51,527 bases of DNA from an uncultured Rhodospirillaceae bacterium (GCA_913045505.1 CAJWQN010000001.1:1-51527); one strand, 5' to 3'; shown: positions 30,555 through 39,640, counted from the first letter of the stretch. Numbers and translations are program-made. The notes: a model not told the origin generated them from the letters alone.

Positions 30555-33485
30555 ATGGCGGCGCAGCCCATGTTGACCTTGGAACAGAACGACGATTTGG
30601 GGAGCGCCCAAGCGCGGCACCCCGACGGCGAGCAGCGAAGGCCCAGCCGTGACAAGACCCGCGCGGCGCGGCGGGGCACCCAGCGCCAGCCGCGATTCAA
30701 CGGCTGGCGAACCTCGGACGAGGAGGAGGTCGAGCGCCGGCGCTGGCGCGGACGCACCGATGTCGCGGCGGTCGAGGCTCTGGAGCCCGACCAGCCGTTT
30801 TTCGGCACCTTCCGCGTCCAATCCGCGAGCGGGGCCGAATACAGTGTCGAGATTCGATCGCTCAGCGCCCTCACCAACTCCTGCGACTGCCTCGATTACC
30901 GGGCCAATGGCCTCGGCACCTGCAAGCACATCGAGGGCACCTTGGTGGCGATCAGGCGCGGGCGCGCGCGCCAATTCGACCACGCCGCCCGGGGGGACAG
31001 CCCGCGCGTGGAGTTGTATCTCGATCGACGCGGCGCGGCCGAGCCACGACTGTCGTGGCCACCCACCGCCGCCGCCGACAGGGAGTTGCGCGGGATTCTG
31101 GCGCCGCTGCTGGGAGACGACGGCGACTCTCGGCCGTTGCCGATTGGCGCGGTGGCCGCGGTCAAGCGGGCCTTGGCCGGGGCGCCCGCGCGGCTGCGCG
31201 CGCAAATACGGGTTTCGCGCCATCTCGACCATTGGCTCGAGGATCAGCGCCGCCGGGACGGGCGCGCCGCGGACAAGAACCGCTTCCTGGCCGCCGTCGC
31301 CGACGGTCGGGAAAGCCTGCAGCCGTTGCGTCTGCCGCTGCTGCCCTATCAGCAAGACGGCATGTTGCATCTGGCCTTCGGCGAGCGGGCGTTGCTGGCC
31401 GATGATATGGGGCTTGGCAAGACCGCGCAGGCGATCGGGGCCAGCGTGTTGCTCAAGGGCCTGCGCGGGATCGGGCGGGTGCTGGTGGTGTGCCCGGCCT
31501 CGCTCAAGGGCGAGTGGCGCGACCAGATCGCGCGCTTCACCGATCTGGAGACGCTGATCGTGGCCGGGCCCCGCGCCGCCCGGCTGCGGGACTACCGGAA
31601 ATCGGCCTTCTTCTATCTGACGAACTACGAGCAGATCATCGCCGACGGCCCCGAGATCAACCGGATTCTGGTCCCCGATCTGGTGATCCTGGACGAAGCC
31701 CAGCGGATCAAGAACTGGCAAACCAAGACCGCGCGCGCGGTCAAGGGGCTCGACAGCCGTTACGCCTTCGTGCTCACCGGGACCCCGATCGAGAACCGGA
31801 TCGATGAAATCTACTCGATCGTTCAGTATCTCGATCCGGAGCTGCTCGGCCCTTTGTTCAAGTTCAATCGCGCATTCTATGAATTCGACGAGCGCGGGCG
31901 GCCGCAAGACTACCGAAACCTCGATGAACTCCACCGCCGGCTGAAGCCGATCATGCTGCGCCGGCGCAAAAGCGACATCGCCGAGCAACTGCCCGGCCGC
32001 TCGGTGACCAACTATTTCGTCGCCATGGACGGCGAGCAGCGGGTGCGCTACCAGGACTACGAGGGCCGCGCCGCGCGTCTGCTCCACGTGGCCCGGAAAC
32101 GACCCCTGACCAAGGCCGAGTTCGACCGCCTCCAGATGTGGTTGGCGTGCATGCGCATGGTCTGCGACACGCCCTACATTCTGGATTCGGATTGCCGGGT
32201 TTGTCCCAAGCTGGAGGAACTGGAACGGGTCTTGGCCGACTTGCTCGCCGAGCCCGAGCGCAAGATCATCGTGTTCTCCGAATGGGTGCGGATGCTGGAG
32301 CTGGTTCGGGATCTGGCGCTCGGCCTCGGCATCGAATTCGCCTGGCATACCGGATCGGTGCCCCAGGACCGGCGCCGGAGCGAGATTCGCCGGTTCAAGA
32401 CCGATCCCGGCTGCCGGCTGTTCCTGTCCAGCGATTCGGGAAGCCTCGGGCTCAACCTCCAGGCCGCCAGCGTGGTCGTCAACCTGGACCTGCCCTGGAA
32501 CCCGGCCAAACTGGAACAGCGCATCGCCCGCGCCTGGCGCAAGTACCAGACCCGCCCCGTGGACGTGATCAACCTGATCACCGAGGACTCGATCGAGAGT
32601 CGCATGCTCGGCCTGCTGACCTTGAAGCAGGACCTGGCCGACGGCGTCCTCGACGGGCGCGGTGATCTCAAGGCACTGCGCATGCCCTCGGGCCGGGCCG
32701 CGTTCGTCGCCCGACTCGAGGCGGCGATGGGCCTTGCCCCGGACCAGGCCGATGCCACGACCGCGTCGCGGCGGGCCACGCCTTCCGAACAGGTTCGCGA
32801 TCACCTGCTCAACCGTCAGCCCGACAGCCTGTTGCTGGTGGAGGCGCGCGAAACCGGTGCCGGCGCGGAAACGGTGGTGGCGGTTCTCGACGCCGATCGG
32901 CAAACCTGCGCGGACGAGGCGGCCCGGCTCCGCGAAGGCATCGACAGCGACCGCGCCGGAACACCGGGCGTCGAGATCATCGATGTCGCCAGCTATCGCG
33001 AGGTGCGGCGGCTGATCGCGGCCGGAGTCCTGAGCTTCGCCGGCGCCCCGGGGCGCGAGCTGTACCGCGCCGCCGGTTTTCTCACCGATGCCGAACAGCT
33101 GGCCGAGCGACGCATAAGCGAGGCCCGGATCTTGTTCGGCGAAGCCGATCGTCAGCTTCGCATGGCCAGCCTTCTGGCCGGCGGCGGTTTCGCCGCCGAG
33201 TCCCGCGCGCCGCTCGCCGAGGCCGCGATTGGCGCGGTGCGGTCGGTCACGGTGTTGATGGAGCCGATCGACTCTGGCGCGCCAGAATCGCCCGGAGAGG
33301 CCGCGAAGCGTCTCGCCGCCTCCGGTCTGCTGCCCGAGGATGCGGTCGCCACCCTGTCGGTCCTCGCCGACGCGAACGGCCACCAAGACGCGCCCGACTC
33401 GATCCCTTCGGTCGCGCGCCTGGTCGCCGCCGCCGAAGGTTTGATCATGAACACCGCGGCCCCGGCCGGGTCAGGCGCCGCCTAG
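30555..33485 (+). CDS. SWIM zinc-finger + SNF2-family helicase/ATPase with an uncharacterised C-terminal extension
   Basis: The SWIM motif is CDCLDYRANGLGTCKHIEG (CxC..CxH). The SNF2_N region has LLPYQQDGMLHL, DDMGLGKTAQAIG and ILDEAQRIKN. The helicase-C region has LFLSSDSGSLGLNLQAASVVVNLDLPWNPAKLEQRIARAWR. The last ~250 aa have no motif I recognise. The start is uncertain (TTG 30507, ATG 30555 or ATG 30570). Confidence 0.85.
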   Translation: MAAQPMLTLEQNDDLGSAQARHPDGEQRRPSRDKTRAARRGTQRQPRFNGWRTSDEEEVERRRWRGRTDVAAVEALEPDQPFFGTFRVQSASGAEYSVEIRSLSALTNSCDCLDYRANGLGTCKHIEGTLVAIRRGRARQFDHAARGDSPRVELYLDRRGAAEPRLSWPPTAAADRELRGILAPLLGDDGDSRPLPIGAVAAVKRALAGAPARLRAQIRVSRHLDHWLEDQRRRDGRAADKNRFLAAVADGRESLQPLRLPLLPYQQDGMLHLAFGERALLADDMGLGKTAQAIGASVLLKGLRGIGRVLVVCPASLKGEWRDQIARFTDLETLIVAGPRAARLRDYRKSAFFYLTNYEQIIADGPEINRILVPDLVILDEAQRIKNWQTKTARAVKGLDSRYAFVLTGTPIENRIDEIYSIVQYLDPELLGPLFKFNRAFYEFDERGRPQDYRNLDELHRRLKPIMLRRRKSDIAEQLPGRSVTNYFVAMDGEQRVRYQDYEGRAARLLHVARKRPLTKAEFDRLQMWLACMRMVCDTPYILDSDCRVCPKLEELERVLADLLAEPERKIIVFSEWVRMLELVRDLALGLGIEFAWHTGSVPQDRRRSEIRRFKTDPGCRLFLSSDSGSLGLNLQAASVVVNLDLPWNPAKLEQRIARAWRKYQTRPVDVINLITEDSIESRMLGLLTLKQDLADGVLDGRGDLKALRMPSGRAAFVARLEAAMGLAPDQADATTASRRATPSEQVRDHLLNRQPDSLLLVEARETGAGAETVVAVLDADRQTCADEAARLREGIDSDRAGTPGVEIIDVASYREVRRLIAAGVLSFAGAPGRELYRAAGFLTDAEQLAERRISEARILFGEADRQLRMASLLAGGGFAAESRAPLAEAAIGAVRSVTVLMEPIDSGAPESPGEAAKRLAASGLLPEDAVATLSVLADANGHQDAPDSIPSVARLVAAAEGLIMNTAAPAGSGAA

Positions 33486-38719: not shown

Positions 38720-39640
38720 ATGCGCGAGACTCCGAAGAAAAGATACACCTATTATCCCGGCTGCAGCTCGCTCGGCTCGGCCGCCCATCTCGACAAATCC
38801 CTGCGCGCGATCGCCCCGGAACTCGACGTCGAACTCGAGGATATCGAGGACTGGAACTGCTGCGGCGCCTCGGTCGGCCATGTCGAGGGCGGCGCCCTGC
38901 CCAACATGGCACTGTCGGGGCGCAATCTGGCCCAGGCCGCGAGTCAGGCGCCCGACGACATCGTCACCGGCTGCGCGTCCTGTTACTTGAACACCCACGG
39001 GGTCAACGAAAAGATCAAGACCGACATCCGCGCCCGGCGCCGGGTCAACGAGGCGCTGGGCGCCGCCGACCTGTGCTATGACGACGATCTTCAAGTCCGC
39101 CACGCCTGCGAGGTGCTCGTCAACGATGTCGGCCTGGACGTGATCAGGGACCGGGTGCGCAATCCGCTCGACGGCCTCGAGGTCGCCGGCTATGTCGGCT
39201 GCCAGACCGTGCGCCCGTTCGCCGACACCGATTCAGGCGGTCGCTACGACACCTATGACGACCCGGCGTTCCTGGACAATTTCGCCGCCGCCTGCGGTGC
39301 CGAGCCGGTCGCCTACGACCCCAAAACCGCCTGCTGCGGCGGCTCGGTCTCGGTCCACAGCCCCGACAAGACCCTGCACCTGATCAAGGAGATCGTCGCC
39401 GCCGCCCATGACTCGGGCGCCGACGTGATCGCGACCCCGTGCCCGCTCTGCCAGCAAAACGTCGAGATGTATCAGGCGGCCATCAACAAGCGGTTCGGCA
39501 CCGATTTCCACATGCCGGTGGTGTTCTACAGCCAGCTCATGGCGGTCGCCTTCGGCCTCGACGGCACCGCCGCCGCCCTCGACCAAAACATGATCCCCCC
39601 CGCCAAGCTGGTCGATCTGGCCAAGAAGCCCAACGAGTGA
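38720..39640 (+). CDS. hdrB: HdrB-like CCG-domain protein
   Basis: It has two CCG-type Cys-rich domains (YYPGCS..NCCGAS..CASCY and GCQ..CCGGS..PCPLCQ). It is 306 aa. Confidence 0.8.
   Translation: MRETPKKRYTYYPGCSSLGSAAHLDKSLRAIAPELDVELEDIEDWNCCGASVGHVEGGALPNMALSGRNLAQAASQAPDDIVTGCASCYLNTHGVNEKIKTDIRARRRVNEALGAADLCYDDDLQVRHACEVLVNDVGLDVIRDRVRNPLDGLEVAGYVGCQTVRPFADTDSGGRYDTYDDPAFLDNFAAACGAEPVAYDPKTACCGGSVSVHSPDKTLHLIKEIVAAAHDSGADVIATPCPLCQQNVEMYQAAINKRFGTDFHMPVVFYSQLMAVAFGLDGTAAALDQNMIPPAKLVDLAKKPNE

Follow-up and report, generated by a model that had tools for sequence, protein, structure and literature searches.

In the genomics of sulfur oxidisers, the QmoAB-HdrCB unit (also written 'HdrAACB' or 'QmoABHdrCB') is listed as an electron-transfer unit associated with AprBA, the adenosine 5′-phosphosulfate (APS) reductase (PMC6397845), and AprAB together with the ATP sulfurylase Sat forms the published sulfite-oxidation route of the cultured sulfur oxidiser Varunaivibrio sulfuroxidans (PMC10305379). 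A direct interaction between Qmo and AprBA has been shown only for the QmoABC complex of Desulfovibrio (PMC3333476). Here we analyze a qmoA-qmoB-hdrC-hdrB module encoded on a 51,527-nucleotide stretch of DNA from an uncultured Rhodospirillaceae bacterium (GCA_913045505.1 CAJWQN010000001.1:1-51527, hereafter the window), where it lies beside a gene for a YkgJ-type cysteine-cluster protein that we call CxxC. The original prediction, made from the sequence alone, took the module for an orphan that could catalyze a different reaction in partnership with the YkgJ-type protein. We find that the YkgJ-type protein is not the core of a new system here and that the locus is probably a natural aprBA/sat knockout, the degraded form of a canonical sulfite-oxidation locus, in a genome from which both APS reductase and ATP sulfurylase have truly been lost.

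The five genes at the locus are as follows, with the four module genes identified by Pfam, NCBIfam and a motif scan:

33471-34319, minus strand: cxxC, a 282-aa PF03692/YkgJ-type Cys-cluster protein with its start ATG at 34319
34570-35838, plus strand: qmoA, a 422-aa HdrA-like flavoprotein with an FAD-binding GGGIAG and CAGSRD..C..CC cluster ligands
35844-38111, plus strand: qmoB, a 755-aa HdrA-like flavoprotein carrying a 2x[4Fe-4S] ferredoxin insert and, at its C-terminus, an MvhD/FlpD domain
38114-38716, plus strand: hdrC, 200 aa, with 2x CxxCxxCxxxCP
38720-39640, plus strand: hdrB, 306 aa, with two CCG domains

The gaps between qmoA, qmoB, hdrC and hdrB are 5, 2 and 3 nt. The open reading frames, domain matches and motifs bear out the identities and sizes first given for these four genes, including the MvhD tail of QmoB, as well as their assignment to the QmoC-less QmoAB-HdrCB type, in which HdrC and HdrB stand in place of the membrane subunit QmoC.

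Related loci were gathered by a QmoB-alignment search and by tblastn, giving 80 QmoB loci from species genomes in which aprA was scored within the fetched flank. QmoB homologs number in the thousands, and the nearest non-self sequences are ~70% identical and come mostly from alphaproteobacterial metagenome-assembled genomes (MAGs), several of them annotated as QmoB. The consensus order in relatives with sufficient flanking sequence is cxxC<-aprA<-aprB<-(ank)<-sat on one strand, followed by ->qmoA-qmoB-hdrC-hdrB on the other. This order is seen in V. sulfuroxidans (locus L003) and in the two closest QmoB homologs with readable context, while 15 further alphaproteobacterial loci carry cxxC<-aprA<-aprB and sat beside qmoAB-hdrCB; the consensus was upheld across the 19 alphaproteobacterial loci mapped, and a sat gene co-directional with qmoA occurs as a minor variant. 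The gene between sat and aprB is, in many alphaproteobacterial loci, a small (~165 aa) ankyrin-repeat gene (L003:6223-6714, L094:6841-7338), and in some a MazG-like gene is also found there.

A concatenated maximum-likelihood tree of QmoA-QmoB-HdrC-HdrB from 60 loci placed the window within the QmoAB-HdrCB clade of alphaproteobacterial sulfur oxidisers with 100% support in the Shimodaira-Hasegawa-like approximate likelihood-ratio test (SH-aLRT). The window is sister to L094, L004, L011 and L012, of which all four have sat within 10 kb and three have aprBA; L094 also provides the closest sister of the window QmoA (74% identity). The tip branch of the window is 0.29, compared with 0.21-0.25 for the sisters from the same node. 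According to the original prediction, the nesting of these genes within canonical sulfur-oxidiser Qmo, together with aprBA-sat elsewhere in the genome, would make this a split but conventional pathway; the nesting is what the tree gives, whereas no aprBA-sat was found in the draft genome.

The module is present in 5/401 sampled Alphaproteobacteria and is also rare in the window's own family. With respect to APS reductase, aprA was found in 49/52 other module-bearing genomes, including 17/17 of the alphaproteobacterial ones, and the three genomes without it are MAGs of unreported completeness. If the absence of aprA holds, the window genome is a genuine exception among the carriers of the module. 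The closest relative of the module that we found is a 2.9-kb contig of a same-family MAG (G002:C199:1-2889, L096) that carries a partial qmoB followed by hdrC and hdrB, with 76% DNA identity to the window and 73-76% amino-acid identity in the module proteins. This MAG was considered as a representative of an old state lacking Apr and was rejected: the contig starts inside qmoB, and the bin is without qmoA, aprA and cxxC. Given that qmoA is missing as well, the neighboring contig was evidently not binned.

The distribution of cxxC links this gene to aprA. Among the 80 QmoB loci it was found in 21 of the 29 with aprA nearby and in 2 of the 51 without, which makes CxxC a companion of AprA rather than of Qmo; in 16 of those 21 loci cxxC directly follows aprA on the same strand. 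The window CxxC is an ortholog of the genes downstream of aprA in relatives (55-58% identity) and keeps 8/8 invariant Cys of the family. However, the variable N-terminal extension of 45-70 aa found in the relatives' proteins is missing, and ~10 AprA residues are present instead. The start of the gene is most likely the ATG at 34319, which gives 282 aa, and not the GTG at 34385 that gives the 304 aa originally assigned, and GCA_030743205.1 annotates the same gene as 282 aa. Measured from this ATG, the distance to qmoA is 250 nt rather than 186, and what had been described as a shared promoter region and as the N-terminal part of a longer protein holds the remnants of aprB and aprA described below. 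The family assignment stands, as the PF03692 match scores 31.7 bits against a Pfam cut-off of 23; the motif is Cx5Cx3CC.

The aprA-linked CxxC subfamily comprises PF03692 (Cx5Cx3CC) proteins of ~300 aa with 8 invariant Cys, whose genes directly follow aprA in Alpha-, Beta- and Gammaproteobacteria (examples are L003:1934-2851, L094:3143-4087 and 21 of the 29 aprA-containing loci among L010-L089). Members were also seen near the apr-qmo loci of some Desulfobacteraceae, which are sulfate reducers, and of Zixibacteria and Acidobacteria MAGs. An AlphaFold2 model of the window CxxC reached a pLDDT (predicted local distance difference test score) of 80 and a pTM (predicted template-modeling score) of 0.79, and a PDB fold search with this model returned nothing below E 1. 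We found no published description of the subfamily. The promoter-distal gene DVU0851 of the qmo operon in Desulfovibrio was tried as a member and rejected, because it is reported to have no homologs outside Desulfovibrio (PMC3125180).

The region from the cxxC core to qmoA was compared by blastx with the AprA, AprB, Sat and Ank proteins of relatives. It contains these features:

34290-34319, minus strand: aprA-derived start, codons 1-10, reading MSESSFGDPD against the AprA consensus MSE[GA][ST]FGNPE
34316-34378, minus strand: aprB stub, a 20-codon open reading frame, MPTFVQTDKCHGCEGGAFTE followed by its stop codon (blastx, translation)
34379-34569, no strand: divergent intergenic region from the aprB stub to qmoA, 191 nt, which in relatives holds sat (with or without ank and mazG)
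34385-34388, minus strand: GGAG resembling a Shine-Dalgarno sequence, 6 nt before the ATG of the aprB stub, read from the sequence
34470-34499, plus strand: sigma-70-like promoter match, TTCACC-18-TATAGT (promoter scan)

Over 19 aa the aprB stub is 74% identical to residues 1-19 of AprB from many relatives (E ~1e-5, blastx), and it agrees with 13/16 positions of the AprB N-terminus MPTFVHTDKCDGCKGG, while the runner-up in a six-frame search of the whole genome agrees with 8/16. The aprA start matches at 7/10 positions, which no other of the genome's ~6.07 million six-frame positions does. A distance of 20 codons separates the two stubs, whose order and orientation are those of the ancestral locus, and the TGA of the aprB stub overlaps the ATG of cxxC (ATGA). 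The aprA-derived codons run in frame into the CxxC core (...HPVTPTRL...FACHAGVACWNLCCHG), and cxxC here joins the first ~10 aprA codons in frame to its conserved core and takes its start codon from them; the GGAG ahead of the aprB stub may act as the ribosome-binding signal of the stub. The stub itself has changed: KCDGCK, shared without exception by 31/31 AprB sequences drawn from all the phyla sampled, reads KCHGCE in the window, an alteration of two invariant positions.

No remnant of sat or ank was detected in 34379-34569, where blastx and blastn remained at noise level. There have been at least two deletions at this locus, one inside aprB and another running from aprA into cxxC, and a third probably removed sat. 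It is because these deletions took away sat, aprB and aprA, leaving only stubs, that cxxC now stands beside qmoA. The original prediction had reported that no aprBA, sat, dsr or sox genes occur nearby, and indeed no intact copy is present in the window or the draft, but the stubs of aprB and aprA had been overlooked.

The junction is reproducible. It is present in four independent assemblies, namely an NCBI MAG, two Joint Genome Institute (JGI) metagenomes and a Tara Oceans run, at 99.98% DNA identity. All share an identical QmoB and the same layout, with an SNF2 gene convergent with cxxC, and with qmoAB-hdrCB divergent from cxxC and convergent with AMIN-like/motB/cheZ/fliM. The identical arrangement spans 12-18 kb and takes in SNF2 at one end and flagellar genes at the other.

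The draft genome comprises 3.05 Mb in 378 contigs and is 86.6% complete. Hidden Markov model (HMM) searches of this draft found neither aprA (TIGR02061) nor sat (TIGR00339), and tblastn with the AprA, AprB and Sat of a close relative gave no match in the 3.05 Mb. Weak matches to the aprA model were considered and rejected, being SdhA and another FAD_binding_2 protein. Neither soxB nor dsrAB was found in the draft, and the window holds no intact aprBA, sat, dsr or sox; the only NIR_SIR protein in the draft is the assimilatory CysI, encoded beside CysH. A tblastn search of the draft for further HdrA or HdrB homologs returned none. On contig C110 of the draft (G000; L104:6255-8887), cysI runs off the contig end and, together with cysH, precedes genes resembling cystathionine gamma-lyase/synthase and cystathionine beta-synthase.

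In the history that we propose, the ancestral locus would have had the order sat-(ank)-aprB-aprA-cxxC, divergent from or upstream of qmoA-qmoB-hdrC-hdrB. The ancestral AprBA would have converted sulfite and AMP to APS, and Sat would have converted APS to sulfate and ATP, while QmoAB-HdrCB is predicted to have passed two electrons from AprBA, via its FAD and Fe-S centers, to the quinone pool or to a thiol/disulfide acceptor. Deletions in the marine lineage would then have taken sat, all but 20 codons of aprB, and the stretch from about codon 10 of aprA to the end of the dispensable N-terminal extension of cxxC. Their product would be an in-frame aprA'-cxxC fusion, translationally coupled through ATGA to the aprB stub, and the locus would thereafter have been unable to oxidise sulfite.

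The proteins of the surviving module are intact. Both QmoA and QmoB contain GxGxxG and CAGSRD...C...CC in the motif scan, two ferredoxin-type CxxCxxCxxxCP motifs are found in QmoB (CTKCRRCTVECP and CRRCGTCMGACP), and its FlpD/MvhD domain covers residues 623-748 (E 2.4e-35); the cofactor cysteines of QmoA, QmoB, HdrC and HdrB are all retained. The qmoC model of NCBIfam matches only the Fe-S part of HdrC (residues 10-104, 64 bits, cut-off 300). The same motif scan revealed no transmembrane-like or hydrophobic segment in any protein of the module. The predicted solubility of the complex is uncertain: against the SdhE membrane-anchor family, the HdrB-like subunit reaches 152 bits, under the 500-bit cut-off of that family, and peripheral contact with the membrane or with quinone through this subunit is possible.

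To what extent these genes are still selected was inferred from their divergence. In a leave-one-out comparison, Qmo/Hdr deviate at 3.9% of the positions that are invariant in ten other taxa, which is within the range of other isolated lineages, while CxxC deviates at 9.1% of invariant positions, the highest value of all taxa. Tajima relative-rate tests against sister lineages gave 1.7-2.5x for CxxC (p 0.001-0.06) and 1.2-1.9x for QmoA (p 0.015-0.37), and rates that did not differ significantly for HdrB (1.5-2.0x), HdrC (about 1x) and QmoB (0.9-1.2x). When the aprB stub is used as an internal neutral marker, its three amino-acid changes in 16 codons translate into ~0.083 substitutions/site (Poisson range 0.017-0.24). 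A divergence of this size predicts 13.9 (2.8-40) nonsense mutations across the five genes (5,895 coding bases); none was seen, for which the probability lies between 0.06 and 1e-6 or less. The numbers are small, but their direction is consistent with dead catalytic genes, a relaxed CxxC, and QmoB and HdrC that are still constrained, and the decay of QmoA and HdrB may have begun.

If APS reductase and ATP sulfurylase have indeed been lost, we slightly favor the retention of QmoAB-HdrCB by selection for electron transfer that does not depend on AprBA, with CxxC drifting, over the view that the complex is a relic too recent to have decayed. The balance tilts toward selection because the cofactor ligands are all kept and QmoB is not accelerated, while the stub has decayed and CxxC evolves ~2x faster. 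A complex maintained in this manner may use quinone as its acceptor through the HdrB subunit. The full proposition, that this is a knockout lineage in which QmoAB-HdrCB is selected for a job independent of APS reductase, such as transfer from another flavin/Fe-S donor or a thiol to the quinone pool via the SdhE-like HdrB, is a tentative one that we consider rather doubtful, and a repurposed role of the surviving complex is possible only as a secondary development.

Several points weigh against a true loss of both enzymes and against the constraint read from the surviving genes. With a draft of this completeness and fragmentation, claims of absence are not safe. The draft contains cysH and cysI, but an ATP sulfurylase of any type (sat, cysD) was not found, and some sulfur gene therefore probably lies in the missing 13%; either sulfate activation is encoded there or the assimilatory pathway is truncated. 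Approximately 1 in 6 of the module-bearing genomes (about 8) has at least two copies of aprA. The nearest database relatives are only ~70-73% identical, and the deletions can therefore not be dated. The neutral-rate argument is built on three substitutions in a 16-codon stub, Fisher tests against Qmo/Hdr at invariant sites were non-significant for the stub (p 0.10) and for CxxC (p 0.07) and amount to a trend only, and QmoA and HdrB show a modest acceleration (1.2-2.0x).

The incomplete draft, the missing sulfate-activation gene and the genomes with two or more aprA copies are all in keeping with a pathway that is split but conventional, in which a redundant aprBA(-sat) copy was deleted here, an intact copy resides in the unassembled ~13%, and Qmo and CxxC still serve APS reductase. 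We regard this as the main alternative, though a considerably less probable one. It would explain the retention of qmo, as intact Qmo/Hdr proteins and a normal rate of QmoB are expected with a surviving partner. Separation of the two gene sets also has precedent, since in the beta- and gammaproteobacterial loci (L024-L088) qmoAB-hdrCB is mostly more than 10 kb from aprBA, and 32 of the 35 non-alphaproteobacterial module carriers checked have aprA elsewhere in the genome, whereas the alphaproteobacterial loci are nearly always linked. Nonetheless, aprA, aprB and sat are untraceable in 3.05 Mb by either HMM or tblastn, which means that both a second aprBA and a sat must have escaped assembly or binning. 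The acceleration of the aprA-linked CxxC and the loss of its N-terminal extension would be unexpected if AprBA were still being served, and, with no Sox or Dsr, the genome is unlike that of a sulfur lithotroph, the type in which a duplicate aprBA is expected.

Far less probable is the dedicated system originally envisaged, in which a soluble Qmo/Hdr complex independent of AprBA would work with the YkgJ-type partner in another thiol/disulfide or flavin-based bifurcating reaction; the scars and the distribution of cxxC contradict it. The two sets of genes are adjacent, divergent and intact, the complex has no membrane subunit, and AprBA was not found in the draft. However, this adjacency is secondary, with the stubs of aprB and aprA lying between the genes, and cxxC follows aprA in relatives and is missing from 49/51 Qmo loci without nearby aprA. 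The module falls within the canonical clade instead of branching off as a lineage of its own, and neither the 80 loci nor the contexts of the closest homologs include another genome in which cxxC and qmo are arranged like this without aprBA. An artefact of assembly or binning, be it a chimeric or collapsed contig or one from another organism, is very improbable: the MAG is fragmented and the flanking SNF2 gene, having no ortholog in the family, marks an accessory region, but the arrangement is identical over 12-18 kb in four independent assemblies from different projects, and the window is the longest contig (C1) of the draft, with a uniform GC of 63-69% across the region.

A degraded sulfite-oxidation locus of this kind would have consequences beyond this genome. 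The presence of accessory qmo/hdrAACB genes is sometimes read as a potential for APS-dependent sulfite oxidation, and such genes can outlive the enzyme; if they are indeed retained independently of AprBA, a widespread complex has a second physiological job. The stubs provide direct sequence evidence for how the catalytic genes were lost. The comparison with relatives also pointed to two putative, undescribed parts of the APS reductase system, the alphaproteobacterial ankyrin protein and the aprA-linked CxxC, the latter a conserved companion of aprA across several phyla with 8 invariant Cys and no solved fold.

The flanks of the locus differ in character. Upstream, an SNF2-family helicase of ~990 aa (30507-33485, plus strand) overlaps the 3′ end of cxxC by 15 nt in convergent orientation. 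Its best NCBIfam matches are SCO1167-type and pilus-regulating Snf2 helicases, with weaker matches to ZorD and DrmD, all far below the cut-offs. No ortholog was found in 22 other genomes of the family, and the gene therefore looks like an accessory one. The segment upstream of it (29286-30260) is strain-variable: L090, from the same population, is without 29861-30260 (400 bp) and is 98.3% identical to the window over 29286-29860, compared with 99.99% elsewhere. A 103-nt direct repeat (73% identity) at 27499-27601 and 30454-30556 brackets an open reading frame at 27844-29865 and ends at the SNF2 start. Neither tRNAs nor flanking repeats of the kind that mark an island were seen, and an Rfam scan of the whole window gave no match. 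Downstream of hdrB, a gene on the minus strand (39676-43095) encodes a protein of 1139 aa that matches nothing in NCBIfam and gives only a faint AMIN-like hint in Pfam. This gene heads a motB-cheZ-cheY-fliM-fliL flagellar/chemotaxis string.

Compared with known systems, the nearest solved structures by sequence are the methanogen HdrABC-MvhAGD complexes (PDB 5odc, 7bkb, 8rvu), to which QmoB corresponds through HdrA and MvhD and HdrB through HdrB (E 1e-66 to 1e-33). The shared elements are the HdrA-like FAD/[4Fe-4S] core, the MvhD-like domain, the 2x[4Fe-4S] of HdrC and the CCG domains of HdrB (noncubane sites). Unlike these complexes, the window has two HdrA paralogs, an MvhD fused to QmoB and no hydrogenase, and its NCBIfam scores stay far under the methanogen HdrA/HdrB/HdrC cut-offs (339 vs 1100, 385 vs 1100, 88 vs 160 and 178 vs 345 bits); its host, unlike the methanogens, is a flagellated aerobic-type alphaproteobacterium. 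The sHdr system (hdrC1B1A-hyp-hdrC2B2 with LbpA) shares HdrA-, HdrB- and HdrC-like subunits in a context of sulfur oxidation, but the window differs from it in having two HdrA-like genes and a single HdrC and HdrB, with no hyp and no second HdrCB pair.

Closer to the window is the QmoABC of sulfate reducers and green sulfur bacteria, which has in common with it the architecture of QmoA and QmoB and the ancestral role as an electron link to APS reductase; in contrast to QmoABC, the window lacks QmoC and any transmembrane or haem b segments and has HdrC and HdrB instead. The window CxxC shares the PF03692 domain with FliB, one characterised member of the family, which is a [4Fe-4S] flagellin lysine methyltransferase (PMC8598068), but it sits in the ~300-aa subfamily with 8 invariant Cys that is found downstream of aprA. 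The closest counterpart is the sulfur-oxidiser QmoAB-HdrCB itself, as in Varunaivibrio (L003), Sulfuricella, Thiobacillus and Acidiferrobacteraceae. Unlike those units, the window's draft is without AprBA and Sat, and aprB and aprA are present only as stubs of 20 and 10 codons. The module is otherwise the same in its four genes and their order, tight spacing, domains and Cys motifs, with 60-74% identity to the alphaproteobacterial members.

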